Counted from the first letter of the stretch, positions 18,472 to 46,229 are shown. The stretch: 64,000 nt of DNA from Melioribacteraceae bacterium (GCA_041674625.1 JBAYVI010000001.1:11421-75420), one strand, 5' to 3'. Translations and numbers: made by a program. The notes: generated by a model not told the origin, from the letters alone.

Positions 18472-18528
18472 TTAAGCGGATAGGCTGACGGGCCGATAAA
18501 TTAGCATTCCGAACTAATTTCCGCTTAA
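18472..18528 (+). promoter_or_regulatory. Y-shaped structured element, copy 1 (upstream of an HNH gene)
   Basis: P1 TTAAGCGGA/TCCGCTTAA, then TA, P2 GGC-tgacgg-GCC, GATAAA, P3 ATTAG-cattccgaa-CTAAT, then T and a T-run. It ends 35 nt before ATG 18564. Confidence 0.6.
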
Positions 18529-18625
18529 TTTTTAAAATCGGAATAAATGCTACGGAGGTATTTATGAAAAAACTAAAATATGTAAAGAGTGTAAAACTGA
18601 GAAAAATTCATCCGAATTTTATAAT

Positions 18626-19630
18626 ATGAAAAATACAAAGGATGGGTTACACATAAACTGTAAAGATTGTTGTTGTAAAATATCGAGAGATAAAAGAAAG
18701 GAATATAGGAATAATTTAATTATAAGAGATCTTAAAGAAAATAAAAAATGTAGGATATGTGGAATAATAAAAGATATTGCGGAATTTCATAAAAACAAAT
18801 CGTCGTTTGATGGTCGTGCATATATTTGTTCAGATTGCGCTTGTAACGAGAGTAAAAGATATAGAGGTATGTATAAAGAAATTAATGAGATAGGGAATAT
18901 CTGCCATGATGTGAAAAGATGTAGCCATTGTAAGGAAGAAAAAGAGATAGAAAATTTTAATTCAGATATTTCAAGTTTTGGAGGATTTGACAAATATTGT
19001 AAAGAATGTCGTTCTATCATGAATAAAGAATATTCTGAGAAAAATAAAGATAGGATTTCTGAATTTAGGAAAATAAATTATATAAAAAATAGAGATTTAA
19101 TTTTAGATAGACAGAGAAAATCTATGGAGGATATTGCGACATTTGCTAGATTTGGGCATAGATTGACTTCTGAAGAAGAGGCAATAGAAGGGGAAAATGG
19201 GGCTTTGTTGATTAAATGTACACATTGTAAAAAATATCATGTACAGAAAAACAAAGTAGTCCTGAATAGAATTGCTGCATTAAATACCCCAGGCGGTAGC
19301 GAATCGAGGATTTATTGTTCTGACCAATGTAAACAAGATTGCGACATTTATTGGGCAAAGCTAATCCCCAAATCGCTTAGGAATATTGCAAGCAAATCTC
19401 GCTGTAACCAGAATAGAGTAAGAGAAATTTTACTAGATATTCAATTTGACGAAATGGGATGTAACTGGTGCGACAAATGCGGTGATATATTTGGACCAGA
19501 AGATTTATTCTTCCACCACAATATCCCGATTGGTGATGACCCAACAGAATACGATAACGCAGCTCATTATATGCTTGTTTGTAAAGATCATCACGAACAT
19601 AAAGGTTGTCTTGGAAATAAATATGAATAA
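18626..19630 (+). CDS. HNH endonuclease with N-terminal zinc-ribbon repeats (5' end probably at ATG 18564 across an A6 run)
   Basis: HNH region FFHHNIPIGDDPTEYDNAAHYMLVCKDHHEHK. Repeats follow the pattern CxxC-x(n)-F-x(n)-CxxC. The first repeat (ICKECKTEKNSSEFYN) lies upstream of the track start in the same frame. Confidence 0.75.
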   Translation: MKNTKDGLHINCKDCCCKISRDKRKEYRNNLIIRDLKENKKCRICGIIKDIAEFHKNKSSFDGRAYICSDCACNESKRYRGMYKEINEIGNICHDVKRCSHCKEEKEIENFNSDISSFGGFDKYCKECRSIMNKEYSEKNKDRISEFRKINYIKNRDLILDRQRKSMEDIATFARFGHRLTSEEEAIEGENGALLIKCTHCKKYHVQKNKVVLNRIAALNTPGGSESRIYCSDQCKQDCDIYWAKLIPKSLRNIASKSRCNQNRVREILLDIQFDEMGCNWCDKCGDIFGPEDLFFHHNIPIGDDPTEYDNAAHYMLVCKDHHEHKGCLGNKYE

Positions 19631-19717
19631 TTCTCTACCACTAGAGAATCTATAAAGGCAACTCTGAGCCAGTCTGACGAATCAGAGATTCTTTTAATCA
19701 AAACGGGAGAAGAAACT

Positions 19718-20950
19718 TTGCAAGAAAATCAACCAAACGATTTAGAACTTACAATCCAAACTTACCTTGACTTAGGTAAAAATGCAAGAGCTACAGCTAA
19801 AGCATTAAACCTTCCAAGAAGTACAGTCCGCAATCGTTTGAAGAAAGCAAAAAATAATCCTAAATATAAAGCATTATTAAACATATCAGAAGATTTTAAA
19901 GTAACAGATACAAATATTTTAAATCAACAAATCCAAGAATTAAGAAGGCAGTTAAATTCTGCTCAAAAGAGTACTTTATTCACAGAACAGATTAAGAAAT
20001 TTGTACTTAAATTAAAAGATTCAGACCCTATTTATCCTGAGTGGTTGGATAATTGCTTTGGTATTAAAAAAGACGATATAATTGGTGTTCCTACTTTAAT
20101 ACTAAGCGATTGGCATTACGGGGAGGTAGTAGATCCAAATCAGATATTCGGCGTAAATGAATACAATATGGAGATTGCAAAGGAAAGGTCAAAAATTGTA
20201 GTTGATAAATGTATTGACCTTGCTTTTAATCATATCGCTAATCCAAAATATCCTGGAATTATTGTGGCATTGCTTGGAGATATGACTACTGGACTTATCC
20301 ATGATGAATTAAAAATTACTGGCGAAAAGGAAGTTCTCCAAGTTACATTAGAACTTCTTGGGGTAATGATTGAAGCTATTAATAAATTAGCAGATGCTTT
20401 CGGAAAGGTATTCTTGCCTTGTGTTGCTGGTAATCATGGAAGACTGACTCTCAAGCCAAGGGCAAAGGGTTATGCATACGACTCCACCGATTGGCTATTA
20501 TTTCAACTACTTGCGAAGTTCTTTGAAAATGATAAACGAGTAAAGTTTTTAATTTCGGATGGTGAAGATGCACAATATAAAGTTTACGATTTTACTTATA
20601 GGATTTCACACGGATCGCAGTTTAAAACGGGAGATGCAATCATAGGCAGCGCGGGAAGTATTATCAGAGGAGATATTCGGAAGCGTTCTTCTGCTCGTTC
20701 AATGGATGCGGAATATGATGTGCTGTTAATAGGCCATTTTCACCAATCAATGACAATTGCCCAAAGGTGTATTTGTAATGGATCGTTGGTTGGTTATAGT
20801 GAATATGCTGCTAAATGCAACTTTCCGTTTGAACCACCTACACAAAATTTCTTTATTACCCATCCAATTCATGGGGTGACATTTAACTTACCAATTAGAA
20901 TAGAGAACAAGGTACAAGAAAAGAAAGAATGGGTTTCCTGGGAGGAATAA
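19718..20950 (+). CDS. calcineurin-like metallophosphoesterase with N-terminal HTH
   Basis: Phosphoesterase motifs are SDWHYG, LLGDMTTG, GNHGR and GHFHQ. The N-terminus LGKNARATAKALNLPRSTVRNRLKKA is HTH-like. TTG start. Confidence 0.7.
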   Translation: MQENQPNDLELTIQTYLDLGKNARATAKALNLPRSTVRNRLKKAKNNPKYKALLNISEDFKVTDTNILNQQIQELRRQLNSAQKSTLFTEQIKKFVLKLKDSDPIYPEWLDNCFGIKKDDIIGVPTLILSDWHYGEVVDPNQIFGVNEYNMEIAKERSKIVVDKCIDLAFNHIANPKYPGIIVALLGDMTTGLIHDELKITGEKEVLQVTLELLGVMIEAINKLADAFGKVFLPCVAGNHGRLTLKPRAKGYAYDSTDWLLFQLLAKFFENDKRVKFLISDGEDAQYKVYDFTYRISHGSQFKTGDAIIGSAGSIIRGDIRKRSSARSMDAEYDVLLIGHFHQSMTIAQRCICNGSLVGYSEYAAKCNFPFEPPTQNFFITHPIHGVTFNLPIRIENKVQEKKEWVSWEE

Positions 20951-20951
20951 A

Positions 20952-21131
20952 ATGAGAGCTTGTAATTGTACACTACCTTATATAAATCCAGATGCTTGTA
21001 GTAATTGTCAAAACAGATCTACATTTGATGAGTATAAATTTTTAAATGATTTTATAGAGCAGCAAGAGCCATTACCACCCGAATTTCAGAAAGTACTGGA
21101 TGACAACTTTTGGGAATTACTAGAAGAATGA
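20952..21131 (+). CDS. small Cys-containing protein (59 aa)
   Basis: Hand-translated MRACNCTLPYINPDACSNCQNRSTFDEYKFLNDFIEQQEPLPPEFQKVLDDNFWELLEE. GGAGGAA SD. Confidence 0.4.
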   Translation: MRACNCTLPYINPDACSNCQNRSTFDEYKFLNDFIEQQEPLPPEFQKVLDDNFWELLEE

Positions 21132-21228
21132 ACGCCATAAAATATTATATACTAAAATACCACCATTATATCTTTAATGAATACCTACAAGTTCTAGGAT
21201 TCGTAATATTTTTCAAGGTTAAAAACAT

Positions 21229-21468
21229 ATGGCTTTAATTTATCATTTAGTCCGTATAAAGCAGAATACACATGGACAATTAGAACCTGTAAATAGAGAT
21301 TATTGCCCTTTATATAAGGATAAAAACGAAATATCAGTATGTCAAGATGGAGATAATTATTGTGTAGGTATTGAACAAGGAAATGTTATAAAACAACTAG
21401 ACAGTATTACATATTTAATTCAATGTAATTATTTTAATACAAAAAGAAGTAAAGCAATAGATAAATAA
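21229..21468 (+). CDS. hypothetical protein (79 aa)
   Basis: Track ORF. Confidence 0.4.
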   Translation: MALIYHLVRIKQNTHGQLEPVNRDYCPLYKDKNEISVCQDGDNYCVGIEQGNVIKQLDSITYLIQCNYFNTKRSKAIDK

Positions 21469-21483
21469 GATAGGAGGAATATA

Positions 21484-24132
21484 ATGACTGTAAATAAAGC
21501 ATTTGCGTATATTAAAAAAGATGATTCTTTGGATTCTGAGCGTAGTATTATTTGCTATGCTTCTACTAATAGCGTTGATCGTCATGGAGATATGATCTTG
21601 CCTACGGCATGGTCCGAAAAAGGCATGAAGAATTACCGTAAGAATCCGGTAATTTTGCTTAATCATGACTACCATAATACATTGCCTGTTGGTAAATCTT
21701 TATGGCAGAAGACTGATGATAAAGGGTTAAAATTTAAAATCCAGTTTGCCGATACGGATCTAGGAAGGGAATTATATTACCTATATTCTGGTGGCTATAT
21801 GTCAAGCTTCAGCGTGGGTTTTCGTCCAGTGAAAACGTATGATAATGAAGATACTAAAAAATATAAGGATGAAGATGGTAATATTCCCCATACAGTTTAT
21901 GAAGAATGTGAACTATTAGAATTATCAGCCGTAAATTTGCCTGCAAATGCCGATGCTAACATGATTAGAACCGTAAAAGGGTTAGTAGAACAAGAAAAAG
22001 GTGGGTTTGTAAAATCTAAAGAATTGATTGATTTTATTGGCGGTATCAAGAGTTCAAAAGAATATATTGAATTAATTTCTGAGGACGAAGCAAAAGAAGC
22101 TCCACAAGAAAAAGCGAAAATTGTAGGGCATATCGATTTAGATTTTGACAATAAATATGTGAATGAAGATGAAATGATGATTATTCCACTTAAAAAGAAA
22201 TATGAAGATTGTGAAAATAAATGCGATAGTTGTAAAGATTGTAATAACGAAGAATTAACTGGAATTGTTGAAGAACCCGTTGAAGAAAAGTCACAAGATG
22301 ATACTGATATCCAAGAGAAGGCTGAAGAGAAAGCAAAGAAACCATGTAAGAAAGAAGACGGCTGTGATGGTGAGTGCATTGGCGATGAATGTGATGAGTA
22401 TGATTCATGTGATGAAGAAATGAAGAAACAATTCGTTGAGGTTTCTATTAATAAAGAAGTTATAGAGGAGATTACCGAAGAAAAACAAATTGAAGAAGTT
22501 GTTGAAACGGAAATCAAATCAGAATTGGATGAAATTATTGAAGATTCAATTAAAGAATTAGAAGAGGAAAATATAGAAATAAAAGACACTTCTTACATTC
22601 AAAAAACGATTGATTTGTTTAATTCTTTAAATATTAAAAATATTACTCCAGAAATGAAAGAACAAATCAAAAAACAATACGGAGAAGAGTTTGATATTTC
22701 AAGTGTAAAAGTAGAACCATATGGTTTTGAATATAAAATTTTCTGTAAGTTCCTTGGTTGTAAAGTAAAAGAAATTTTTACTAATGACTTTTTTATTCCT
22801 ACTGTAGAAAGAGGGAATTACCTTTCTGCCATTAAGACTGTGTTAAAAGATGCAACTCTCCTTGATCAAAGGGCATTTACTCAAAATGGTTGCGAAGTTC
22901 CGCTTAAATATAGCACTATTAAATTAAATTCAAAAAGATCAGATGAATTTTTAATTACCGGGACTCAATTTTATAAATCCACTGATGGTGAATCATTCAT
23001 CCTTCAATTCTACCCTGTCTGGGGAGGAATGATAGCAGATATCTATTGTTCAAAAGACAAAAATAAAATAGCAAAATCATTATTTGTTGATTCTGTTAAG
23101 TGGGTAGAAAAAAATAATTTTCTTAGAGGTGAAAAATTTTCCGTTAGCGGTGAATTTTTAGAAAGAAAATTATTTGAATGGGATGATGTAATTTATTCAA
23201 GTGATAAAGATAAAGAGACTATCAAGAAGAATGTTGAGAAGTTGTCAGAAACCTCTCCTAGTCGGGGGATGATGCTTGTTGGCCCTCCAGGAAACGGCAA
23301 AACTACCCTCGGCAAAGTTATGATGAATAAAATGGATTCAACATTTATTTGGGCTAGTTCAAAAGATTTTGAATGGGGTGCGGATTATACATTAGGTATT
23401 GGCTTTGAGATGGCTAGAAAATTAGCCCCCGCTGTATTTTTTATTGAGGATATTGATGGTTGGTTAAATGCTTATACTGTTGATCTTCTCAAGACAGAAA
23501 TGGATGGTATTAGAGACAATAAAGGCGTTCTTACTATCTTAACAAGTAATTTCCCCGAAAATATGCCAGATGCATTGATTGATCGCCCAGGCAGATTCCA
23601 TCATATTATAAATTTTTCTTTACCAAATAAAGAAAATAGAATAAAATTATTAAAGTTTTTTACTGAAAATGCCGATAAGGAAAGTATAGAAAAATTTGCA
23701 GATATGACAGAAGGATATAGTGGTTCACATCTAAGAGAATTAGTAGATTTTGCAAAAATGATTTCCGAAGATGAAGAAATTTCAATAGACGAAGCATTAA
23801 TGAAATCGTTTGAACAAATGAAAGAGCAAAGACAATTAATCCATGATATTAAAAATGAACCGAAGAAGAAAGAATTTATTGATATCGAAACTGTAGAAGT
23901 TAAAGATTCTAGTATTGATTTTGAAATTAAAAATACTGAAGAGGAAACGGTAATTAAAGAAACGATTGATTTTGAGATTAAAGAAACTAAACAAAGTGTA
24001 GATTTTAATATTACTAAAGAAGAGGCTCAAGAGATAATTAAAAATTCAATTATTAATGTAGCACAAGAAATGCAATCGATTGAAGACTTAGTTGATGAAA
24101 GAATTAAAAGAGCAAAGGGTATTATTTTTTAA
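21484..24132 (+). CDS. prohead protease (S78/HK97 type) - acidic/Cys-rich linker - AAA+ ATPase fusion protein
   Basis: The N-terminus has LLNHDYH, GYMSSFSVGF and ELSAVNLPANADA. The middle is an acidic Glu/Lys-rich region with a Cys cluster. The C-terminal part has Walker A GPPGNGKT (23281-23304), Walker B FFIEDID and DALIDRPGRFHH. TAGGAGGAAT SD. Confidence 0.85.
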   Translation: MTVNKAFAYIKKDDSLDSERSIICYASTNSVDRHGDMILPTAWSEKGMKNYRKNPVILLNHDYHNTLPVGKSLWQKTDDKGLKFKIQFADTDLGRELYYLYSGGYMSSFSVGFRPVKTYDNEDTKKYKDEDGNIPHTVYEECELLELSAVNLPANADANMIRTVKGLVEQEKGGFVKSKELIDFIGGIKSSKEYIELISEDEAKEAPQEKAKIVGHIDLDFDNKYVNEDEMMIIPLKKKYEDCENKCDSCKDCNNEELTGIVEEPVEEKSQDDTDIQEKAEEKAKKPCKKEDGCDGECIGDECDEYDSCDEEMKKQFVEVSINKEVIEEITEEKQIEEVVETEIKSELDEIIEDSIKELEEENIEIKDTSYIQKTIDLFNSLNIKNITPEMKEQIKKQYGEEFDISSVKVEPYGFEYKIFCKFLGCKVKEIFTNDFFIPTVERGNYLSAIKTVLKDATLLDQRAFTQNGCEVPLKYSTIKLNSKRSDEFLITGTQFYKSTDGESFILQFYPVWGGMIADIYCSKDKNKIAKSLFVDSVKWVEKNNFLRGEKFSVSGEFLERKLFEWDDVIYSSDKDKETIKKNVEKLSETSPSRGMMLVGPPGNGKTTLGKVMMNKMDSTFIWASSKDFEWGADYTLGIGFEMARKLAPAVFFIEDIDGWLNAYTVDLLKTEMDGIRDNKGVLTILTSNFPENMPDALIDRPGRFHHIINFSLPNKENRIKLLKFFTENADKESIEKFADMTEGYSGSHLRELVDFAKMISEDEEISIDEALMKSFEQMKEQRQLIHDIKNEPKKKEFIDIETVEVKDSSIDFEIKNTEEETVIKETIDFEIKETKQSVDFNITKEEAQEIIKNSIINVAQEMQSIEDLVDERIKRAKGIIF
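23650..23679 (+). promoter_or_regulatory. sigma-28/FliA-type motif embedded in coding sequence
   Basis: TTAAAGTTTT-N11-TGCCGATAAG read in frame as LKFFTENADK. It lies about 0.9 kb upstream of the MCP gene. Confidence 0.35.
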
Positions 24133-24141
24133 AGGATATTT

Positions 24142-24417
24142 ATGAATAAATATTATGGTCGTAGATGTATGGGACATTATGTAAAATGTGATGATATTCC
24201 TAGTTTATTCAAACCAACAACTGTTGGTCGTTCAATTAAAATAGTACATGGCATTCCTGATGATTCGCAATTGATTGATCTAGTAATTCAAGATGGATAT
24301 GATGGGAAAGAGTGCATGTTTGTGTTTGAAAGTGAAGAATTCGACGTATTTGAATATGGGGCAAAATCACTTCCTGGTATTTCGGTTAGATATAGTTATT
24401 ATACAATTAAAGAGTGA
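24142..24417 (+). CDS. hypothetical protein (91 aa)
   Basis: Track ORF between the protease fusion and the MCP. Confidence 0.5.
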   Translation: MNKYYGRRCMGHYVKCDDIPSLFKPTTVGRSIKIVHGIPDDSQLIDLVIQDGYDGKECMFVFESEEFDVFEYGAKSLPGISVRYSYYTIKE

Positions 24418-24559
24418 TTTTTTAAATAAAACATAAATTATGGTTATACATCCTCAGTATAAAATATACCAAAAATCACTAAGGATGTCAAGAAAATTGC
24501 TGGAGATACTTTAGAGGTATTAGGCGATTATTAAAATAAAATATTTGGAGGAATTAAAT

Positions 24560-25807: not shown

Positions 25808-25848
25808 TTGATTTATTTGATAAATGATTATAATATAATGCTATGTGT

Positions 25849-25904
25849 TTTGGGATAGGACGGCCATCCGACAAGTTGAGAATTCTCCCGCTCAATTTCC
25901 CAAA
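25849..25904 (+). promoter_or_regulatory. Y-shaped structured element, copy 2
   Basis: P1 TTTGGGA/TCCCAAA, then TA, P2 GGA-cggcca-TCC, GACAAG, P3 TTGAG-aattctcccg-CTCAA, then TT and a T-run. It ends 34 nt before ATG 25939. Confidence 0.6.
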
Positions 25905-25938
25905 TTTAAAATTTACGGGAACATATGGGGATATGTAA

Positions 25939-27036
25939 ATGGCAAGAAAAGCAAATAAAGTAGAAGTAAAATGTGAAACGTGTGGCATCCAAAAGATTAT
26001 CACTGAAAGAGCATATAACGACAATAAAACAAAGAGGTTTTATTGTAATTCTGAATGTAGAAGTAAAGATAGATTTAAACAAATAGATGTTAGTTGTCCT
26101 AATTGTGGGAAAGAATTTTGGGTTCCAGAATCGCAATTTAATCGGACAAAATCTAAAAAGTTTTATTGTAGTGTAAAATGTAGGAGTGAACATTCTAATA
26201 TTTTATCTATTTGCTCCGGTTGCGGAAAAGAGTTTATAAAGAAATCTTATGACAAAGGCGGTCTATTTTGCAGTAATGAATGTTACTTTAAAAGCATAAG
26301 AAACAGGGTTAAAACAAATTGCGCTTTTTGTGGGAAAGAAATAGAAAAATCTAGACATCAATTTGATACTCAAGATAATTGTTTTTGCTCAAGGGAGTGT
26401 TTGTTTAGCTGGCAACGTGAAAATTGGCAAGGAGAGAGCCATCCTAATTATTCCCAAATTGAAATATCTTGTGGTTTTTGTGGTAAACAGATATCGAGAA
26501 ATAAATGGCAGGTAGAGAATAGAAAATATCTCTTTTGTGATTCTTCTTGTCTTCACGATTTTATGAAAAGTGACAAGTCATGGGGAAGAAAAGATAAACA
26601 TTTAGTACCGTGTTCGAATTGTGGCAAAGAATTACTGGTTTCACCTGCTGAAGTGGATCGATATTGTAAACATTTTTGTGATTCTTCTTGTAAGAGTGAA
26701 TTTAATGTCGGAGAGAATAATCCTAACTGGAGAGGTGGATTATCATTCCAAGATTATGGGATGGAATTCAATGAAACACTAAAAGGGGTTGTTAGAAACA
26801 GGGATAATAGGACTTGTCAGTTATGTGGAGAGGTGGAAACGGATAGAAAGCATGACTGTCACCACATTGATTATTGCAAGGAAAATAATGTAGAAGAAAA
26901 TCTTATTTCTTTATGTAGAGCGAATGGATGCCACTCAAAAACAAATGGGAATAGGAAGTATTGGGAAAAATATTTTAAGGAATTAATAGAACAAAAGTAT
27001 AATAATCTTTTGGATGCTGCACGTTCAACAACATAA
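25939..27036 (+). CDS. HNH endonuclease with six tandem FCS-type zinc fingers
   Basis: Six repeats of CxxCG-x(15-19)-(F/Y/L)FC(S/N/D)xxC. The C-terminal HNH region is CQLCG...HDCHHIDY...NLISLCRANGCHSK. Confidence 0.8.
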   Translation: MARKANKVEVKCETCGIQKIITERAYNDNKTKRFYCNSECRSKDRFKQIDVSCPNCGKEFWVPESQFNRTKSKKFYCSVKCRSEHSNILSICSGCGKEFIKKSYDKGGLFCSNECYFKSIRNRVKTNCAFCGKEIEKSRHQFDTQDNCFCSRECLFSWQRENWQGESHPNYSQIEISCGFCGKQISRNKWQVENRKYLFCDSSCLHDFMKSDKSWGRKDKHLVPCSNCGKELLVSPAEVDRYCKHFCDSSCKSEFNVGENNPNWRGGLSFQDYGMEFNETLKGVVRNRDNRTCQLCGEVETDRKHDCHHIDYCKENNVEENLISLCRANGCHSKTNGNRKYWEKYFKELIEQKYNNLLDAARSTT

Positions 27037-27065
27037 AACGTATAAAAATTTAGGAGGAATAAATT

Positions 27066-27551: not shown

Positions 27552-27578
27552 ACATAGCGGTAACCAGTAATAATCAAC

Positions 27579-27621
27579 ACCCACTTACCTCTGATTATTT
27601 TAAATTGAGAGGTAAGTGGGT
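27579..27621 (+). terminator. 13-bp stem-loop after 27066..27551
   Basis: ACCCACTTACCTC / GAGGTAAGTGGGT with a 17-nt loop. The U-tract is weak. Confidence 0.45.
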
Positions 27622-27628
27622 TAATTGT

Positions 27629-27703
27629 AGCGGGTTGGAGAAGTAGGAACTCGTCAGGCTCATATCCTGAAGATCATAGGTGCAAATCCTATACCCGCTA
27701 CCA
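27629..27703 (+). tRNA. tRNA with CAT anticodon (Met or Ile2; not initiator-like)
   Basis: Hand-folded. Acceptor AGCGGGT/ACCCGCT, anticodon stem TCAGG/CCTGA with loop CTCATAT, T arm ATAGG-TGCAAAT-CCTAT, encoded CCA. The T-loop has G where U55 is expected. Confidence 0.7.
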
Positions 27704-27725
27704 ATATCAATAGAGGATTTAAAAT

Positions 27726-27992
27726 TTGGGAAACGAATACGTTAAAGTCAAATTCCTTTCAGATTGGATGGGTCATCCCGAAGGTTCCACCCTAACAATC
27801 ATGAAGGTAAAAGCGAATGAATTAAAGGCGAGGAATATTATTAAACTAGTTGATACAGTTGATTCTAAATCTTTGATTGATTTAAATAATAAGATTAAAG
27901 AAGAAATTAAAAACCTTGATTCTCCGCCTATGAATAAAATGATAGATTCCCCTCAAATTAAAAAATCTAGTGGTAGACCGAAAAAGAAGTGA
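27726..27992 (+). CDS. hypothetical protein (88 aa) with basic C-terminal tail
   Basis: Track ORF with a TTG start and a GAGGA SD. The C-terminus is KKSSGRPKKK. Confidence 0.4.
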   Translation: MGNEYVKVKFLSDWMGHPEGSTLTIMKVKANELKARNIIKLVDTVDSKSLIDLNNKIKEEIKNLDSPPMNKMIDSPQIKKSSGRPKKK

Positions 27993-28001
27993 ATTGATTA
28001 T

Positions 28002-28079
28002 CTGTGTGTAGCTCAGTCTTAGTAGAGTAACCGCCTTGGACGCGGGAAGTCGGAGGTTCGAATCCTCCCACCCAGACCA
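28002..28079 (+). tRNA. tRNA-Pro (TGG)
   Basis: Hand-folded. Acceptor CTGTGTG/CACCCAG (one U-C mismatch), anticodon loop CTTGGAC, T arm GGAGG-TTCGAAT-CCTCC, encoded CCA. Confidence 0.75.
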
Positions 28080-28100
28080 TAATAGAATAGATTTTTAACG

Positions 28101-28176
28101 GCTGGATTAGCTCAGTTGGTAGAGCATCTGCCTTGTAAGCAGGCGGTCACGGGTTCGATGCCTGTATCCAGCTCCA
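28101..28176 (+). tRNA. tRNA-Thr (TGT)
   Basis: Hand-folded. Acceptor GCTGGAT/ATCCAGC, D arm GCTC-AGTTGGTA-GAGC, anticodon loop CTTGTAA, T arm ACGGG-TTCGATG-CCTGT, encoded CCA. Confidence 0.85.
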
Positions 28177-28579: not shown

Positions 28580-28633
28580 TTGGGGATAGGGCTGTACACC
28601 TGACAAGAAGACTTAATCCATCTTCTTCCCCAA
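28580..28633 (+). promoter_or_regulatory. Y-shaped structured element, copy 3
   Basis: P1 TTGGGGA/TCCCCAA, then T, P2 AGG-gctgtaca-CCT, GACAAG, P3 AAGA-cttaatcca-TCTT, then CT and a T-run. It ends 31 nt before ATG 28665. Confidence 0.55.
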
Positions 28634-28664
28634 TTTTATTTTAAGGACCATAGGAGGAATAACT

Positions 28665-29366
28665 ATGGAAAATGTATTAGGTAATAGGTACGGAAGATGG
28701 ATTGTAATAAACAACAATCCGAGTATCAGGACGAAGAAAAGAAGATCGGTCATTTGTCAATGTTCATGTAAAAAGAAAACCGTTAGGGAAGTAACTATTG
28801 TAGATTTGAAAATGGGTAAATCTAATTCTTGCGGATGTCTCCAAAGAGAAAGGGCAGCAGAATCGAATAGTACTCATGGGCTTTATAGGCACCCTTTGTA
28901 TAATATCTGGGGTTTAATGATGGGAAGATGCTATAACAAAAATGGAGTTCAATATAAGGATTGGGGCGGTAGAGGAATAATAGTTTGCGATGAGTGGAAA
29001 TATAATCCCGAATTATTTATAGAATGGTGTTTAGAAAACGGATGGGTTCAGGGATTAGAAATTGATAGAGAAAACAATGACGGGAATTATGAACCAAATA
29101 ATTGTAGATTTGTAACATCTCAGATAAATATAATAAACATGAGATTAATTCAATCAAACAACACATCTGGATATAGGGGCGTTTATTATAATAAACGCAA
29201 AAGAAGTTATTGTTGCCAAATTGGATATAACAAGAAATATATTTTAAGTGAATCTGGCTTCAAAACACCAGAACAGGCGGCGAAAGCACGGGATATATTT
29301 ATTATAAAAAACGATTTGCCTCATAAATTAAATTTCCCAGAACTAGCAATTAACGGGCCGCTATGA
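28665..29366 (+). CDS. AP2-domain, homing-endonuclease-like protein (paralog of 6997..7815)
   Basis: HPLYNIWGLMMGRC...CDEW...EIDRENNDGNYEPNNCRF plus the AP2-like YRGVYYNKRKRSYCCQI. Confidence 0.6.
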   Translation: MENVLGNRYGRWIVINNNPSIRTKKRRSVICQCSCKKKTVREVTIVDLKMGKSNSCGCLQRERAAESNSTHGLYRHPLYNIWGLMMGRCYNKNGVQYKDWGGRGIIVCDEWKYNPELFIEWCLENGWVQGLEIDRENNDGNYEPNNCRFVTSQINIINMRLIQSNNTSGYRGVYYNKRKRSYCCQIGYNKKYILSESGFKTPEQAAKARDIFIIKNDLPHKLNFPELAINGPL

Positions 29367-36625: not shown

Positions 36626-36650
36626 AGTTTCTGCAATTTTTACCGATAAG
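36622..36650 (+). promoter_or_regulatory. sigma-28/FliA-type promoter-like motif directly upstream of the glycan island
   Basis: TTAAAGTTT-N12-ACCGATAAG. The -10-like element ends only 6 nt before ATG 36657. Confidence 0.35.
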
Positions 36651-36656
36651 CAATTC

Positions 36657-37855: not shown

Positions 37856-37942
37856 TATTTCAGAAACTAATGAAGGATTTTATGACGCTATCAAATCAAC
37901 TAATACTGATGAGACTAATAATTTATCGGGTGAGTTAATTAA

Positions 37943-39803: not shown

Positions 39804-40902
39804 GGTGATGACAATTGTTGGGACTAGGCCCGAATTAATAAAAATGTCTAGGGTTATAGATAAATTAGATAAAAATACAAATCATATTTTAGTACATACT
39901 GGTCAGAATTATGACTATGAGTTGAATCAGATTTTTTTCGACGAACTTAAAATAAGAAAACCAGATTATTTTTTAGAAGTTGCTGGTGAAAATACAGCAC
40001 AAACGATAGCAAACATTATCGAAAGAACAGATAAGGTAATAGAGGCAGAAAGTCCAGATGCTTTTGTAATATACGGAGATACCAATTCGTGTCTTTCTGT
40101 AATTTCAGCCAAAAGGAGAAAAGTGCCTGTATTCCATATGGAAGCAGGCAATAGGTGTTTTGATCAAAGAGTTCCAGAAGAATTAAATAGAAAGATAATA
40201 GACCAGTTATCTGATATTAATATTGTTTTATCTGATAGAGCTAGAGAAAATCTTGTACTAGAAGGAATAAGACCAGAAACTATATTTAAGTCTGGTTCTC
40301 ATATGAAAGAAGTTTTAGATTACTACATGTCTGATGTGTATAGGTCAGACGTACTAAATAGATTAAAATTAAAAAGTTCAAGTTATTTTGTGTTTAGTTT
40401 TCATAGGGAAGAAAATATTGACGACATAGATAATTTAAAAACTATAATTAAATCGATAAAGGCAGTATCTGCAACATATAACCTCCCTGTTATAGTATCC
40501 ACTCACCCTAGAACAAAGAAAGCATTAGATGATTTAAATATTAGTACAGATGAAAAGATTATTTTTAGTAAGCCGTTTGGGTTATTTGATTACATAAAGT
40601 TGCAAATCAATGCAAAATGTGTTGTCTCAGATAGCGGTACAATAACAGAAGAGAGTTCTCTACTCGGTTTTCCTGCTGTTACTATTAGGAATACTCATGA
40701 AAGGCCAGAGGGAATGGATAATGGTGTTTTAATCATGTCTGGTGTAGATACTGGGTCAATAATGGATTCGGTAGATGTTGCTATAAAATGCGGCAAGCCA
40801 CATGCGATTGATGAATACAATAAACAAGATGTATCTACCCATATATTAAAATTGATATATAGTCATACTGGATACATTAATAGAACCGTATGGCATAAAT
40901 AA
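39796..40902 (+). CDS. non-hydrolysing UDP-HexNAc 2-epimerase (WecB/FnlC/CapG family)
   Basis: TIVGTRPELIKMS, YGDTNS, HMEAGNR and VSDSGTITEES. Confidence 0.85.
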   Translation: MLKVMTIVGTRPELIKMSRVIDKLDKNTNHILVHTGQNYDYELNQIFFDELKIRKPDYFLEVAGENTAQTIANIIERTDKVIEAESPDAFVIYGDTNSCLSVISAKRRKVPVFHMEAGNRCFDQRVPEELNRKIIDQLSDINIVLSDRARENLVLEGIRPETIFKSGSHMKEVLDYYMSDVYRSDVLNRLKLKSSSYFVFSFHREENIDDIDNLKTIIKSIKAVSATYNLPVIVSTHPRTKKALDDLNISTDEKIIFSKPFGLFDYIKLQINAKCVVSDSGTITEESSLLGFPAVTIRNTHERPEGMDNGVLIMSGVDTGSIMDSVDVAIKCGKPHAIDEYNKQDVSTHILKLIYSHTGYINRTVWHK

Positions 40903-40933
40903 TGATAACGGTTAATGTGTTATTAGTGAAGCA

Positions 40934-41758
40934 ATGAAAAGAATACCTAAGATAGTTCATATGTATTGGGACGGAACACCTATGTCTAAACTACAGACTT
41001 TTACTGTAACTTCTTTTTGTAGGTTAAATCCAGATTGGAAAGTAATAGTACATCTTGATAAATTAAGGTATCGTGGGAACAATAAATATATACCTTCCTA
41101 TGTACGAGAAGATTATTTCCATATAGTGAAGGATAATAAACAAGTTAATATAGATGAAGTAAATCTTTCTGATTATGGCGTCAGTGGAGATTTACATCCG
41201 ATATTAAGATCAGATATATTGAGGTATCATTGGCTATATAATGAGGGAGGTGTTTGGTCAGATTTTGATGTTATTTGGTTAAAACCTATTCATTATTTAA
41301 GCACTATAGCTGGAACTGATTCATTTGGGGTTACTTTATGCATGTACGATGGGAAAAAGAAACATCATAATGTAAGTGTATTGGTCAGTTCCAAAGGCCA
41401 CGAATTTTATAGGTATGCCATATATTTATGCAATGAAATAAAAAATAAAATAACAGAAAACCCGGACCATCAGGAGTTCGGGAATTCAATTTTTAATAAA
41501 GCATTCCCTAAGCCTGAAGACGCCTTGAGTAAATTCCCAGATATGATTAATTTAAAATATGAAACATTTTTCCCGTATTCTATTTTTAATATGGACGCGC
41601 TGTATTTAAGTACGGACTTAACGTATATAACAGACTCGGTTATTGGTGTACATTGGTTTAACGGCCACAAGTATAGTAAGGACTACGTAAATAACAATGG
41701 TTTCAGTAGAGATTGTAGTATGACAGAAATCATTAAAAATGAGGGTTATAATGACTAA
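40934..41758 (+). CDS. glycosyltransferase with DXD sugar-binding motif (Gly_transf_sug-like)
   Basis: IPKIVHMYW, RSDILRYHWLYNEGGVWSDFDV. Confidence 0.7.
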   Translation: MKRIPKIVHMYWDGTPMSKLQTFTVTSFCRLNPDWKVIVHLDKLRYRGNNKYIPSYVREDYFHIVKDNKQVNIDEVNLSDYGVSGDLHPILRSDILRYHWLYNEGGVWSDFDVIWLKPIHYLSTIAGTDSFGVTLCMYDGKKKHHNVSVLVSSKGHEFYRYAIYLCNEIKNKITENPDHQEFGNSIFNKAFPKPEDALSKFPDMINLKYETFFPYSIFNMDALYLSTDLTYITDSVIGVHWFNGHKYSKDYVNNNGFSRDCSMTEIIKNEGYND

Positions 41759-42584
41759 AAGAAATATTTTTTTATTTAAGGCAGAAGGAAAAGAAAATTT
41801 CGGAGAATACTTATGTAAGAGTGTTATACAAAAGATGGGGTTTGGACTTAATAATTATTCTAATGTTAACCAGATAACAGAACCAATTGATTATATAATG
41901 ACTGGGATAGGTGGATTTCTAAACAATGAAATCCATTCTTTATATTTAACTAAAGCCAAGAAGTGGTATGTGTGGGGTAGCGGAGTTCATTGCATTCCTT
42001 TACCTTGGCATAAATTATCGGAAGACATCATAAAGAACAAATGTATTATAACTGCTTTAAGAGGTCCGATGACCAGGGATTATTACGGGATCAAAGATGA
42101 TATTACACTAGGTGATGCTGGCTACTTAGCTTCTTATTTTTTTAAATTCCCAGTAAATGAGAAGAAGAAGAATGTACTCATTAATCATCATTATGATAAT
42201 GTTAAAAAACCGATGAAAGGAATAGATATTCATATATCGTCTTTGATGGACTCAGACATTAATGGTTCTTTTGACAATCAGTTTAAATACATATTGAATA
42301 GTATATGTAACGCAAATATAGTAATGACTAGCTCTATGCACGTAGCTATAGTTGCTTATTCTTATGGTATTCCCTTTGCAATGGTAGCCAAGAGAGAGAC
42401 TGATTTAGTTAAAGAGTGGAAGTGGCATGATACATTATTGAATATGGGCATAACAAAGAAAATAGTATTGTGTGAGAGTATAGAAGATGGTTGGGCTTGG
42501 TGGAACAGTGTTCAGAAAGATATACGTCCAATTACTAAAGAATATCAGGGAACAATAATAAAGGCATTTCCCGTAATACTATGA
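41739..42584 (+). CDS. polysaccharide pyruvyl transferase family protein
   Basis: The C-terminal VMTSSMHVAIVAYSYGIPFAMV is typical of PS_pyruv_trans. Confidence 0.65.
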   Translation: MRVIMTKRNIFLFKAEGKENFGEYLCKSVIQKMGFGLNNYSNVNQITEPIDYIMTGIGGFLNNEIHSLYLTKAKKWYVWGSGVHCIPLPWHKLSEDIIKNKCIITALRGPMTRDYYGIKDDITLGDAGYLASYFFKFPVNEKKKNVLINHHYDNVKKPMKGIDIHISSLMDSDINGSFDNQFKYILNSICNANIVMTSSMHVAIVAYSYGIPFAMVAKRETDLVKEWKWHDTLLNMGITKKIVLCESIEDGWAWWNSVQKDIRPITKEYQGTIIKAFPVIL

Positions 42585-43402
42585 AGTGTTATTTAGCATA
42601 TTCAGCAAATCCAGATGTAAGACATAAAGCGTCAACTGGGGGATTTTGCAAAGAATTTTTACGTTTTTGCATAGAGGGGAAAATAATAGATAAGTCAATA
42701 CTAACAATTCTTGGAGAAGGAGAAGAAGCTTTAATCCCAAGAACTATAATTACTGATGATATAGAGAAGATAATGTCTACGAAGAGTAATTCTATATATG
42801 ATAAAACTAATCCATTATCCATTTTATCTAGTTTGAATAAAAACGAAAGTTATATTTTTGTAGGTTTGCCATGTCATATTTACTCAGTTAAAAAATATTG
42901 CAGCAAACACAATATCCGAATTATAACAATATCTTTATTCTGCAATCATACATCAGACAATAAATATTATAAAAGTGTTTTAGATAAAGCAAACCTGAGT
43001 GAAATAGATGTAAAACATTTCGAATATAGAGGATCTGGATGGCCTGGGTTTGAAAAAATAATTACCAATGAAGACCAGGAAATTAAGATTGACCATATAG
43101 AGGGATGGGATAATTATGTAAAAAAATATATGCAAATGCTACCAAAATGCAAGGTGTGCACCAGAATGATTTCGGAAGAAGCAGACATATGTGTTGGCGA
43201 TGCATGGATGCAAAAAGTATTAAATAACGATAGCAATGGAACTAATATGGTTGTGGCGATGACCACAACAGCGGATAAACTTGTAATGGATTGTTGTAAA
43301 AGTGGATATATTCATATTGAACATTTAGATATATCTGAATTTGAGGCCCAGAATAATAGGTCTGTTAAAATTAAGAAAGATAGAAGAGAGGCTTATGAAT
43401 AG
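42581..43402 (+). CDS. F420-hydrogenase beta-subunit C-terminal-like (FrhB/FdhB-C) protein
   Basis: VGLPCHIYSVKK, RGSGWPG, CxxC and GDAW. This family is commonly paired with pyruvyl transferases in polysaccharide loci. Confidence 0.6.
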   Translation: MKCYLAYSANPDVRHKASTGGFCKEFLRFCIEGKIIDKSILTILGEGEEALIPRTIITDDIEKIMSTKSNSIYDKTNPLSILSSLNKNESYIFVGLPCHIYSVKKYCSKHNIRIITISLFCNHTSDNKYYKSVLDKANLSEIDVKHFEYRGSGWPGFEKIITNEDQEIKIDHIEGWDNYVKKYMQMLPKCKVCTRMISEEADICVGDAWMQKVLNNDSNGTNMVVAMTTTADKLVMDCCKSGYIHIEHLDISEFEAQNNRSVKIKKDRREAYE

Positions 43403-44255
43403 CTGGAGTATGTCGATCCCTAAGGTTCTCAATTTGTATTGGGGTAAAAATAAACCATTATCTTTTATGAAGTACCTGACCGCTTTATCTTTTGTGAAAC
43501 ATAACCCAGATTGGGAGATAATAGTTTATTACCCATCTGTGGTAGAAAGTAAAATATTGTGGGATAGCAATGAACAAAAAGAATATAATTATGATGACAT
43601 TGATTATTTTGATAGATTAAGTAATATTAAAAATTTATCTTTAAGGAAAACCGAGTTTGGTGAATTTTCAAACTTATCAGAAGTACATAAATCAGATCTC
43701 ATTAGGCTTAAAATATTATCAACATCAGGTGGGGTTTGGTCAGATTTTGATATTTTTTATACAAAATCGATTAATGAATTCGATCTAAATAATACTGACA
43801 ATAAATTAAAAGATACATTTGTTTGCTTCACTAGTTATCATAGTATCGGGTTTTTAATGAGTTCTGGGAATAATAAATTCTTTGAAGAACTATATAAAAT
43901 GGCAATATATAATATAAAAAATGCTGAAAATCTACAATACCAAAATTTAGGTAGGGATTTATATAATTATTTTTTTAAATATAATGATTATAAAGCGATT
44001 AATTATTCAATTAAATTCAATTGTAACATTGCAAACATTACATTTGAAACGGTATATCCACTACAATGGAACCAGATAGATTTAATATTTGGCGATAACA
44101 AACAGCGATTACCAGAAAATACAGTTGGCGTACATTGGTTTGCTGGATCTCCAATAACATCTAGTGTAGAGAATAAAATTACAGAAGAAAATATCCACCT
44201 TAATAAAGATAAATTCCTTCTAAAACTAATGTGTGAATTACTTGAAGAAATATAG
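43395..44255 (+). CDS. glycosyltransferase with DXD sugar-binding motif (second copy)
   Basis: IPKVLNLYW, KSDLIRLKILSTSGGVWSDFDI. ATG 43395 is preferred over the track's TTG 43341. Confidence 0.7.
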   Translation: MNSWSMSIPKVLNLYWGKNKPLSFMKYLTALSFVKHNPDWEIIVYYPSVVESKILWDSNEQKEYNYDDIDYFDRLSNIKNLSLRKTEFGEFSNLSEVHKSDLIRLKILSTSGGVWSDFDIFYTKSINEFDLNNTDNKLKDTFVCFTSYHSIGFLMSSGNNKFFEELYKMAIYNIKNAENLQYQNLGRDLYNYFFKYNDYKAINYSIKFNCNIANITFETVYPLQWNQIDLIFGDNKQRLPENTVGVHWFAGSPITSSVENKITEENIHLNKDKFLLKLMCELLEEI

Positions 44256-45042
44256 TATTGTGTTTCCTTATTATAAAAGATCTAGTCAACTCCATAATTC
44301 ACTTATTTCGTTCCAACATCACTATAAAGATAGAAATGATTATGAAGTAATTGTCGTTGAAGATATTAAAAACTATAATAATGCAGAAGAACACGAAAAA
44401 CTATTAAAAGTATTAAAGTTTTATACACAAAATGCCGATAAGGTAGTTAATATAAAACTGATAAAATCGAGCTTTGAGAATTGTTATAATCCAGCTCCTT
44501 TATTTAATTTAGGAGTGAAAAACGCTAGTGGCGAATATTTAATTATAACAAATCCAGAGATATTCCATAAAGATAATATATTGAGTGCATGTGATGATAT
44601 ATTGTCTAAATACGATGACCATTATATAGTATTTTCTTGCCTTAATGTTGATGAGTATCCTAAAAGTGTATCTGATTTTGATGAATTTACTTTTAAACCA
44701 AAAATGTGGTATCAACATTTAAAATATAGAAATGCTTTATTCCATTTCTGTTCCTGCTTGTCGAAGAGACAGTATGAAGAAATTGGGGGATTTGATGAAA
44801 TATATTCATTAGGTATTGCATACGATGATGACGATTTCAGAGAAACAATAAATAAAGCAGGGATTCAATTCATAGCAACTGATTCATTTTTAACATTGCA
44901 TCAAGATCATGGAAGTGTGTTTGATAAATTGCCTGATTATGAAAAGAGATTGAATAGAAATAAAGCGTTGTATTATTTGAAGAAGCAAAATAAGTCAAGT
45001 GAGTATATTAACCAATTTTTAGGAGAGAATTTTGGTGGATAA
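44233..45042 (+). CDS. family 2 glycosyltransferase
   Basis: SIVFPYYKR, VVEDIKNYN, and a later DDDD acidic motif (AYDDDDF). Confidence 0.65.
   Translation: MNYLKKYSIVFPYYKRSSQLHNSLISFQHHYKDRNDYEVIVVEDIKNYNNAEEHEKLLKVLKFYTQNADKVVNIKLIKSSFENCYNPAPLFNLGVKNASGEYLIITNPEIFHKDNILSACDDILSKYDDHYIVFSCLNVDEYPKSVSDFDEFTFKPKMWYQHLKYRNALFHFCSCLSKRQYEEIGGFDEIYSLGIAYDDDDFRETINKAGIQFIATDSFLTLHQDHGSVFDKLPDYEKRLNRNKALYYLKKQNKSSEYINQFLGENFGG
44413..44442 (+). promoter_or_regulatory. sigma-28/FliA-type motif embedded in coding sequence
   Basis: TTAAAGTTTT-N11-TGCCGATAAG read in frame as LKFYTQNADK. It shares the 23-nt ATTAAAAGTATTAAAGTTTTATA with the intergenic copy at 13863. Confidence 0.4.
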
Positions 45043-45715
45043 AGAGAACATCCGTTTGGGAATTGGGCTTCCATTGGTAGACGACAAGGTACACACTGCA
45101 TTTTTAGATTCCTTTGTGATGATGAAGAAGCCAAATTTCGTATATATTAGGCCAACATTCCCATCAATGCAGATTGATGTAATTAGAAATCAATTGGTTA
45201 AGCAAGCATTAGAATCTGGTTGTACTCATTTGTTGATGCTAGATACGGATCAGGTATACCATGACCCAGATATGATTAGTAAAATGCTGGAACACGATAA
45301 AGATGTTGTATCAGCTATCGTACATAGGCGCTATCCTGGCTTTGATCCCATCACTCTAAGGGGTGAACCTGGGAAGTACTTAATGGTTCCAGATGAAGAA
45401 ATTTTAGCAGCAAGAGAATTAGATAACCACCTAATTGAAATAGACGCGACAGGTGGAGGTTGTTTACTTTACAAGACTGAAGTATTTTTAAAAATCCCGC
45501 CAGCTTGGTTTGAATTTTCAAGAACTGAAGGCGGCGATGTCATAGGAGAGGATGTAAATTTTTGTTATAAATTGAAGCAAAATGGATATAAGATATATTG
45601 TGATACGTCTATTGATATTGGGCATTTAAGCAATTTAGAAATAAATTGGGCGACATATCGGCTTTACGGCCACTTAAAGAAACTACAAAAAGAAGATGAA
45701 AATAAGAAATTATAA
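45032..45715 (+). CDS. GT-A fold glycosyltransferase (paralog 3)
   Basis: LMLDTDQVYHDPDMISKMLEH, GEDVNFCYKLKQNGYKIYCDTS and GHL. TTG/GTG start after an AGGAGA SD. Confidence 0.7.
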   Translation: MVDKENIRLGIGLPLVDDKVHTAFLDSFVMMKKPNFVYIRPTFPSMQIDVIRNQLVKQALESGCTHLLMLDTDQVYHDPDMISKMLEHDKDVVSAIVHRRYPGFDPITLRGEPGKYLMVPDEEILAARELDNHLIEIDATGGGCLLYKTEVFLKIPPAWFEFSRTEGGDVIGEDVNFCYKLKQNGYKIYCDTSIDIGHLSNLEINWATYRLYGHLKKLQKEDENKKL

Positions 45716-45748
45716 ATAAGCAATTATAAATAAGCAGGAGGTATAAAT

Positions 45749-46165
45749 ATGGCACAAGCATATGCTGGACGTGAAACACAGGTAACATTGAATGGTGGCA
45801 CAATTAGTCTTTTAGGGTCTTGGACTCTTAATGGGCAGGAAGTTGAGCTTTTGGAGCAAACTGCTTTCGGAGACACCTATCGTCAGTTTTTGCCCGGTTT
45901 GAAGAGCGGAGGCACTATTTCTTTTAACGGTTTGTACGATGGCACCGATACTGCGGGCCAAACCGCCCTTCGGAATTATAACGCTAACAATACTAGCGTG
46001 ACTGACATTAAGTTATACGTGGATGATACCAGCTATTATACGCCGAGTACCACAAATCCATTATCATATTGCTGGGTGACTGGCTTTGATGTTGGCTCTG
46101 AGGTCGGTGGCTTAGTCACTGCTACATTTTCACTCGCCGTGTCTGGCAAGATGGTACTCGTATAA
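45749..46165 (+). CDS. major tail (tube) protein
   Basis: 138 aa with a strong GGAGG SD. The Gly/Thr-rich beta-type sequence is typical of siphovirus tube proteins. It is followed by chaperones and the tape measure gene. Confidence 0.7.
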   Translation: MAQAYAGRETQVTLNGGTISLLGSWTLNGQEVELLEQTAFGDTYRQFLPGLKSGGTISFNGLYDGTDTAGQTALRNYNANNTSVTDIKLYVDDTSYYTPSTTNPLSYCWVTGFDVGSEVGGLVTATFSLAVSGKMVLV

Positions 46166-46179
46166 TAAATTAAATAATT

Positions 46180-46229
46180 GTGGGATAGGACGGCCATCCG
46201 ATAAGCATAGACCTAGCTATGTTTCCCAC
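46180..46229 (+). promoter_or_regulatory. Y-shaped structured element, copy 4
   Basis: P1 GTGGGA/TCCCAC, then TA, P2 GGA-cggcca-TCC, GATAAG, P3 CATAG-acctag-CTATG, then TT. It ends 35 nt before ATG 46265. Confidence 0.6.

Follow-up and report, generated by a model that had tools for sequence, protein, structure and literature searches.

The window analyzed here, a 64,000-nucleotide (nt) stretch of Melioribacteraceae bacterium DNA (GCA_041674625.1, JBAYVI010000001.1:11421-75420), contains four copies of a Y-shaped RNA element located among the virion genes of a virulent-looking phage. According to Pfam and PHROGs assignments of the neighboring genes, copies 1 to 4 are preceded by genes encoding the portal, the major capsid protein, a 105-amino-acid (aa) protein and the tail tube, respectively, and are followed by genes encoding an endonuclease VII/HNH-like protein, an HNH protein with a zf-FCS domain, an AP2-HNH protein and a NUMOD3-HNH protein. 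The gap between the end of the closing stem (P1) and the ATG of the downstream gene measures 34 to 35 nt for copy 1, 34 nt for copy 2, 31 nt for copy 3 and 35 nt for copy 4. The annotation and the gap lengths thus bear out a preliminary description of this DNA, made from the sequence alone, which had placed every copy between a morphogenesis gene and an endonuclease gene starting 31 to 35 nt downstream. All four elements share the layout P1 - UA - P2 - GAYAA - P3 - U - P1′. The elements and the genes behind them are located as follows (apical loops in square brackets):

18471 to 18529, plus strand: copy 1 of the three-way junction; P1 at 18471-18480/18520-18529, ATTAAGCGGA/TCCGCTTAAT; P2 at 18483-18494, GGCT[GACG]GGCC; P3 at 18500-18518, ATTAG[CATTCCGAA]CTAAT
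18564 to 19630, plus strand: endonuclease VII/HNH-like gene 1; ATG 18564 is joined to the long open reading frame (ORF) only by a −1 shift
25849 to 25904, plus strand: copy 2 of the three-way junction; P1 at 25849-25855/25898-25904, TTTGGGA/TCCCAAA; P2 at 25858-25869, GGA[CGGCCA]TCC; P3 at 25875-25896, GTTGAG[AATTCTCCCG]CTCAAT
25939 to 27036, plus strand: HNH endonuclease gene 2, with zf-FCS, PHROG 1271
28580 to 28633, plus strand: copy 3 of the three-way junction; P1 at 28580-28586/28627-28633, TTGGGGA/TCCCCAA; P2 at 28589-28600, GG[GCTGTACA]CC, followed by an extra U (T in the DNA) at 28601; P3 at 28607-28625, GAAGA[CTTAATCCA]TCTTC
28665 to 29366, plus strand: AP2/HNH endonuclease gene 3, assigned with Pfam/PHROGs
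46180 to 46229, plus strand: copy 4 of the three-way junction; P1 at 46180-46185/46224-46229, GTGGGA/TCCCAC; P2 at 46188-46199, GGA[CGGCCA]TCC; P3 at 46205-46222, GCATAG[ACCTAG]CTATGT
46265 to 47131, plus strand: NUMOD3-HNH endonuclease gene 4, assigned with Pfam/PHROGs

Folded alone, each of the four copies has the Y shape as its minimum-free-energy structure, with modest folding z-scores (−2.6, −0.7, −1.7 and −1.7 for copies 1 to 4). Because a MAFFT alignment of 57 copies was out of register in its 3′ half, a covariance model was seeded instead with five family members of equal length, of which only one came from the window. In a search of the whole window with filters off, this model assigns 62.1, 51.0, 37.9 and 48.0 bits to copies 1 to 4, and the next-best match reaches only 9.3 bits (E = 3). 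The window therefore holds exactly four copies, all on the plus strand and far beyond chance, at the positions and with the stem architecture that had been described before.

Related uncultured phages, whose capsid proteins are 74 to 80% identical, hold further copies. The core pattern GGATAGG-N4-10-CCGAYAAG was matched in 118 viral contigs, and a descriptor requiring P1 and P3 as well retained 67 distinct elements. A covariance model (R1) yielded 77 matches in 100 sources, which gave an alignment of 68 distinct rows. Standard pairs occupy 98.5% of the helix cells of this alignment (69.0% after shuffling), double-sided changes number 271 (68.7 after shuffling), and 12 of the 14 pairs include a compensatory change; when pairing partners were slid by 1 to 3 columns as a control, the share of paired cells is only 40 to 58%. 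Because it was fitted to the model, the alignment is biased toward the structure; the margin is nevertheless large. RNAalifold independently predicts the same junction with one more pair, an invariant A-U that joins the last A of GAYAA to the U preceding P1′. The junction core GGA-UA-GG...CC-GAYA is near-invariant from Escherichia coli islands to AT-rich phages. The first pair of P3 is G-U in 43 sequences and G-C in 23, which fits an RNA read from this strand and not a symmetrical DNA structure. Both the covariation counts and the RNAalifold prediction uphold the earlier proposal of a three-way-junction RNA with compensatory changes, and the covariance model and wider search suggested as its check have thus produced 68 distinct homologues with a strong pairing excess. 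A megablast search of cultured phages with 13 kb of the window gave no match, and a search with the capsid protein found distant relatives only (<40% identity).

The four elements are homologous structured RNAs and divergent members of int-alpA (RF02996), a motif defined by Weinberg et al. in 2017 (PMC5737381) that Rfam types as "Gene; sRNA" without giving a function. Copy 1 (18473-18541) matched RF02996 in a short-region Rfam scan with 38.1 bits (E = 7.9e−7), above the gathering threshold of 35.8. A whole-window Rfam scan with gathering thresholds and fast filters returned three transfer RNAs (tRNAs) only and missed copy 1, and 161-nt Rfam scans around copies 2, 3 and 4 gave no int-alpA match at E ≤ 10. 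The Rfam model scores 46.7, 44.0, 42.3, 36.3, 35.7, 34.1 and 33.3 bits on other phage copies and 69.5 and 64.2 bits on two E. coli int-alpA loci. In the reverse direction, a model built only from the phage-type alignment (R2) scores 28.7 and 40.8 bits on the same two E. coli loci and 54.5, 54.2, 51.5 and 41.1 bits on the window copies. Since the scores are linked both ways, the window elements are divergent int-alpA members that straddle the Rfam cut-off. The preliminary description did not recognize the element as a described RNA family, an impression that does not survive the comparison with Rfam that it had itself suggested.

The likeness to int-alpA extends to structural detail. Both RNAs are three-stem junctions with UA after P1, G-A-N-A-A between P2 and P3, and U before P1′, and these bases appear in the consensus alignment, in the covariation counts and in the RNAalifold prediction. 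Both also have a tail complementary to the P3 loop (consensus loop CCuU and tail AgGG in RF02996), a complementarity that is clear in copies 1, 2 and 4 and weak in copy 3. They differ in the closing pair of P1 (A-U in the window, C-G in int-alpA), in the junction strands (GAYAA/U versus GAAAA/CU) and in context, as the window elements are putative homing-endonuclease leaders in a virulent-looking phage. The integrase-alpA interval, from which the family takes its name and which is no structural criterion, is absent around the window copies, where virion and endonuclease genes are found instead. Our literature search returned no paper giving int-alpA a function (another mention merely lists the motif). 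Neither a second site in the ribosome-binding site (RBS) region nor an endonuclease association of int-alpA was found in the literature that was accessible to the search. This association and the architecture of loop, decoy and ribosome site appear to be new.

The preliminary description was correct about the structure of the element; it overlooked its most informative feature, which is that the P3 loop is complementary to two downstream sites: site 1, shortly after P1 and matched in nearly every copy, and site 2, just before the start codon. In the window, the sites and an additional predicted hairpin (P4) are located as follows:

18538 to 18544, plus strand: site 1 of copy 1, TCGGAAT, complementary to the P3 loop ATTCCGA
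18545 to 18563, plus strand: hairpin P4 of copy 1, AAATGC[TACGGAG]GTATTT, directly before ATG 18564
18553 to 18557, plus strand: site 2 and Shine-Dalgarno sequence CGGAG of copy 1, within the P4 loop
25916 to 25920, plus strand: site 1 of copy 2, CGGGA
25921 to 25936, plus strand: hairpin P4 of copy 2, ACATAT[GGGG]ATATGT, the loop being both Shine-Dalgarno sequence and site 2, before ATG 25939
28641 to 28647, plus strand: degenerate site 1 of copy 3, TTAAGGA
28648 to 28668, plus strand: hairpin P4 of copy 3, CCATAG[GAGGAATAA]CTATGG, with ATG 28665 in the stem
46242 to 46247, plus strand: site 1 of copy 4, CTAGGT, matching the P3 loop ACCTAG
46253 to 46257, plus strand: site 2 of copy 4, CTAGG, overlapping the Shine-Dalgarno sequence AGGAG at 46255-46259, before ATG 46265

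Site 1 of copies 1, 2 and 4 comprises 5 to 7 bp and lies 8 to 12 nt after P1, and in copies 1, 2 and 3 a P4 hairpin is predicted alongside the junction. Copy 3 is the weakest: its site 1 has decayed relative to the strong site 1 of the relatives L042 and L003 (9 and 7 bp, respectively), and its P4 loop, GGAATAA, matches the P3 loop with one mismatch. Each window copy has its own loop-site "address."

The two-site pattern was evaluated across 59 elements by permuting the loops among them. The linker contains a site of 5 bp or more in 86% of the elements (16% when permuted, z = 15), the interval from −14 to +3 around the start codon contains a site in 59% (17% when permuted, z = 9), and both sites occur together in 58% (11% when permuted). 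The median distance from P1 to the start of site 1 is 7.5 nt, and that from the 3′ end of site 2 to the start codon is 6 nt, which is the usual position of a Shine-Dalgarno sequence. Site 1 is the better conserved and has a mean length of 5.98, versus 5.72 for site 2. In at least 27 of 49 cases, site 2 falls in the loop of a predicted small hairpin. The sites change along with the loop even where they do not resemble a Shine-Dalgarno sequence (L059, L086 and L054): the loop CCAAGAC of L059 pairs with GTCTTGG twice, and the pairings of L086 are GAATAC/GTATTC and TTGAATA/TATTCAA. The E. coli int-alpA RNAs have the same layout of a loop and two sites. Because both pairings use the same loop bases, they are mutually exclusive. 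Judged as Shine-Dalgarno sequestration of the T-even type, complementarity to and covariation with the start region are strong, and the pairing is predicted from sequence. A correlation between P1 length and site 1 offset was set aside, as it would be trivial if site 1 is fixed relative to the junction.

The genes found downstream of the element point to mobile cassettes. In viral contigs, about 60% of the downstream genes are homing endonucleases of unrelated families, a count that goes back to a pattern scan in which no gene information was used. Of 68 downstream proteins, at least 41 belong to three BLAST clusters of HNH, GIY-YIG, AP2/NUMOD and endonuclease VII types, and the Pfam matches among them are HNH_3 (14), NUMOD4 (8), GIY-YIG (5), NUMOD1 (5), AP2 (4) and endonuclease VII (one); the downstream protein of L098 is a further HNH. 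Cultured phages also hold the element: it precedes an annotated HNH gene in Salmonella phage Seszw_1 and is present in Enterobacter phage Tyrion and Vibrio phage phiV208. Matches to the same DNA pattern in bacterial genomes are mostly due to chance, with 18 of 120 passing the descriptor filter and about 15 being convincing. In five of the eight bacterial copies that were checked, the element lies 7 to 14 nt after a tyrosine integrase gene and unrelated hypothetical proteins come next, and the E. coli order is int, RNA, unknown gene, alpA. The median distance between the upstream stop codon and the element is 16 nt.

Two sites were compared between the window and its relatives. In relative L002, the interval between the homologues of the window's 79-aa gene and gene 21484 contains about 18 nt, the junction, both of its sites and an endonuclease gene of 396 aa that supplies, with its 3′ end, the Shine-Dalgarno sequence of the next gene; the homologous site of the window is an empty intergenic stretch of 15 nt. 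This presence and absence, together with the excess of endonuclease genes downstream, backs the earlier suggestion of a cis element moving together with endonuclease cassettes. Behind the capsid gene, all relatives have the RNA, and the state of the endonuclease gene differs: it is intact in the window and in L042, carries a frameshift in L002 and is missing from L001 and L004, a pattern that fits the cycle of homing-endonuclease invasion, decay and loss, with the leader outliving the gene. A scan for sigma-70-like promoters revealed no excess near the elements and no internal late promoter of the T-even type inside the structure, although the phage's own promoter type may differ from the sigma-70 consensus. 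Given the lack of such an excess, the cassettes look promoter-less, like several T4 seg and mob genes (PMC2988022).

We propose that the most likely function of the element, with a probability of roughly 55%, is that of a self-contained, cis-acting governor of endonuclease translation, a reading that draws on sequence complementarity and genomic context. Each element would be the 5′ leader of a promoter-less, freestanding homing-endonuclease cassette in a late structural operon, and the three-way junction with its almost invariant core would be the scaffold on which the apical loop of P3 is displayed. Pairing of this loop with site 1, in the linker about 5 to 13 nt after P1, would form a pseudoknot, and pairing with site 2, where this site lies in the loop of P4, would form a loop-loop contact. 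While the P3 loop occupies site 2, the ribosome-binding region would be hidden on the abundant late polycistronic mRNA; site 1 would be a built-in competitor or decoy, which sets or switches the fraction of translatable molecules. As a result, translation of a potentially harmful nuclease would be limited or gated. The effect on translation, its direction, and any trigger that chooses between the sites are the steps of this scheme that we infer.

Several observations weigh against such a governor. In copy 3, site 1 is only weak and site 2 has a mismatch. About one-third of the downstream genes do not encode endonucleases (they include two glycosyltransferases, a helicase, and island genes of unassigned product behind integrases). 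A scan of this non-endonuclease cargo gave three family matches only, namely an RNA polymerase alpha C-terminal-domain-like domain (L058), a PHROG without function (L029) and HNH families (L098); nothing informative about a shared function emerged among the scanned proteins, and the bacterial cargo proteins are mutually unrelated. The element persists after the capsid gene where the endonuclease gene is missing (L001 and L004), and it may therefore have a role for the upstream gene. If site 1 always wins, the Shine-Dalgarno sequence stays free and the element might not repress. Lastly, the junction core is more conserved than a passive scaffold needs, which hints at an unnamed bound factor; this conservation suggests either such a factor or a precise tertiary fold.

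A translational governor of this kind would have partial precedents. The T-even homing endonucleases I-TevI, I-TevII, I-TevIII, segB and mobE are encoded on long polycistronic transcripts and kept low in expression by RBS-sequestering RNA structures (PMC2988022). In these phages, as is predicted for the window elements, an upstream RNA structure pairs with the Shine-Dalgarno region of the homing-endonuclease gene. The T-even structures are, however, simple and idiosyncratic hairpins that are relieved by a late promoter inside the structure, whereas the window elements belong to a conserved family in which a three-way junction is combined with a predicted contact between loop and site and with a second, competing site. 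A different parallel is fold-back inhibition in the transposase mRNAs of IS10 and IS50, where upstream RNA pairs with the element's own ribosome-binding site in read-through transcripts. There, too, a mobile element shields itself and its host from read-through transcription, but the fold-back is a simple long-range duplex, neither a conserved structured family nor provided with a competing second site.

The third precedent is the c4 RNA of phage P1, an operon-encoded antisense RNA that acts on the icd-ant message and has two sets of target boxes (PMC8198154). The c4 RNA of P1/P7 (RF01695; target boxes a1b1 and a2b2, RF03163) resembles the window elements in being a structured RNA located in the same operon just upstream of its target, in having loops complementary to the ribosome-binding region of the next gene, and in having two sets of complementary boxes; it also occurs in the same E. 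coli islands as int-alpA. The two RNAs differ in that there is no sequence or model similarity between them and in that c4 has two recognition loops, one target set upstream of the RNA, and a known action in trans after processing. The C4 covariance model has no match at the window elements, but it does match other parts of the E. coli islands. Along with int-alpA, these islands (L134 5555-6273; L135 7140-7365) hold the C4 antisense RNA, a1b1 target boxes and isrK, which adjoin Icd-like and antirepressor genes, an arrangement that corresponds to a P1 immI-like module within a satellite-like island.

The c4 precedent, an antisense RNA encoded just upstream of its own target and equipped with two target-box sets (PMC8198154), also lends some weight to an alternative that we nonetheless consider unlikely: the junction might be released, through termination at P1 where a U-run follows or through processing, as a stable Y-shaped small RNA (sRNA), the P3 loop of which acts in trans on sites 1 and 2 of read-through mRNAs. 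The Rfam type of int-alpA agrees with such an sRNA, as do the U-run after P1 in the E. coli copies and in the Rfam consensus and the closed P1 stem, which would shield the RNA ends. Yet most homologues are without a U-run, the sites lie 5 to 35 nt away on the same transcript, where pairing in cis is strongly favored, and an individual loop-site address for each copy is needed by a local device and not by a diffusible regulator. The missing C4 match at the window elements also counts against this alternative.

U-runs bear equally on the idea, put forward in the preliminary description, that the element could be a branched terminator (of the intrinsic type) or attenuator, by which the structural mRNA would be insulated from the endonuclease gene. 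Window copies 1 and 3 do have U4 runs after P1, U-rich runs also follow the E. coli copies, seven consecutive U follow P1 in the Rfam consensus, and the elements lie a median of 16 nt past the upstream stop codon. Among 66 homologues, however, a run of at least four U follows P1 in only 8 and at least five U in 8 nt are found in only 11, and no GC-rich homologue has a run of four or more. Since the U-run is not conserved, termination is not the family's function, and the T-rich run has to be removed from the architecture given earlier. A terminator scan, moreover, found none at the elements; a terminator would have no need of conserved junction bases or of a loop that matches the downstream start region, and the virion-essential genes located 3′ of each copy must still be transcribed. 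We thus regard termination as an improbable main function.

The conservation of the junction bases from E. coli islands to AT-rich phages would be accounted for by a sensor RNA, in which the core binds a ligand or a protein and thereby decides between site 1 and site 2, either like a riboswitch or in a protein-dependent manner. The mutually exclusive pairings would then be comparable to those of an expression platform. Because the heterogeneous downstream genes suggest no ligand and the core is small, we give this possibility little credence.

It is very unlikely that the RNA is instead a 3′ element of the upstream gene, either a stabilizer or a retro-regulator, as lambda sib is for int. The element does follow integrase genes tightly in bacteria (7 to 14 nt) and abundant virion genes in the window, and it was retained after the capsid gene once the endonuclease gene was lost. 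Such a role is difficult to reconcile with the constant spacing to the downstream start and the match of the loop to the downstream ribosome-binding region, with upstream genes that are mutually unrelated, and with the site that differs between L002 and the window, where the element comes and goes with the downstream endonuclease gene and not with the upstream gene. Least likely of all is a DNA-level element (a recombination site, cassette boundary or nuclease target, similar to the integron attC), which would suit the position at the 5′ edge of a mobile cassette and the P2 loops enriched in palindromes of 4 to 6 nt, because G-U pairs are frequent and strand-specific and the complementarity is placed at the ribosome-binding site, while all copies are oriented as the downstream gene and the palindromes vary from copy to copy, so that no single protein site is implied.

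Control of endonuclease translation in cis, if correct, would have implications beyond this phage. Freestanding homing endonucleases are common in phages, and how they reside harmlessly in heavily expressed essential operons is understood case by case and in T-even phages only. In the present case, a single conserved RNA fold is found ahead of endonuclease genes from unrelated catalytic families, in phages that differ greatly in base composition, and also ahead of the unrelated cargo genes that follow integrases in bacterial islands. If translation is gated, the fold would represent a general mechanism by which mobile cassettes carry their own expression control, and it would give a testable function to an Rfam family that has been without one since 2017. 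Annotation would gain as well, since most phage copies score below the current Rfam threshold, and the element might find use as a compact, context-insulated part for tuning expression. A broader conjecture, possible if rather doubtful, is that the int-alpA fold could be a widespread portable translational switch of selfish or accessory cassettes (phage endonuclease genes, or the first cargo behind an island integrase), which would operate through a loop, an identical decoy and an RBS, with a core that might read a protein, ligand or ribosome signal. A literature search for a homing-endonuclease leader with a three-way junction found nothing, and under this conjecture the three-part logic of scaffolded antisense loop, decoy and RBS would be without a described counterpart among other leaders.

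The apical loops of P2 are enriched in GC-rich palindromes of 4 to 6 nt (GGCC, GCGC, UGUACA, CUGCAG, UCGA and others), which are present in 26 of 40 distinct homologues versus 10.2 ± 2.4 after shuffling, and in window copies 2, 3 and 4 (25861-25866, 28591-28598 and 46191-46196). The palindromes might serve RNA dimerization or reflect a DNA-level symmetry, and palindromic P2 loops may add RNA-RNA dimerization to the proposed switch.

The endonuclease genes of the window have individual peculiarities. The spacing of gene 1 behind copy 1 agrees with the preliminary description, but the start that it assigned does not hold as it stands: ATG 18564 and the long endonuclease ORF (first ATG at 18626, homology from about 18575) are in different frames, and a −1 shift in the A6 run at 18567-18572 is needed to restore the sequence MKKTKICKEC..., as in the intact L001 homologue. 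The frame break could reflect an assembly error or a pseudogene, or else slippage, either programmed or transcriptional. A sigma-70-like site is located at 18597-18625, just before the in-frame ATG 18626. The start region of gene 2 (25921-25941, ACATATGGGGATATGTAAATG) resembles positions 7340-7372 of L001 (ATATATGGAGGAATAAATTATG), which are the start region of the 161-aa gene in this endonuclease-free relative; the likeness may fit insertion at, or duplication of, that start, but it is weak and AT-rich and could be due to chance. A fifth homing-endonuclease-like gene (6997-7815, 272 aa), which is related to the AP2-HNH gene at 28665-29366, is without a junction element. It lies in a non-structural region, outside the structural operon, and overlaps the stop of a small helix-turn-helix gene.

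Other known RNAs were considered as well. An inspection by eye of how long the junction strands are and how they read led us to dismiss hammerhead and other known small ribozymes, and a tRNA-like fold was dismissed in the same way because there is no T-loop and the P3 loop is variable. In the Rfam scan of the window, the tRNA model matched only at 27629-27700, 28002-28076 and 28101-28173, and none of these matches is at the elements. The three tRNA genes (27629-28173; Rfam scores of 62.1, 54.1 and 65.1 bits) lie within the structural operon, between the 161-aa and 105-aa genes and between junction copies 2 and 3, and relative L004 has no tRNA insert between the homologues of these two genes. 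The L004 copy after the capsid gene (7265-7332) is a variant, in which a G-U-rich P2 of 8 bp (GGCUUUGG/CUAAAGUU) replaces the conserved GG/CC; the 161-aa structural gene is directly 3′ of it, with TATAAT-like boxes between site 1 and the Shine-Dalgarno sequence. Two contigs that carry the junction element contain a further structured RNA each, a group I intron at 1703-1913 of L039 (67.1 bits) and a RAGATH-18 RNA at 2344-2415 of L030 (69.5 bits).

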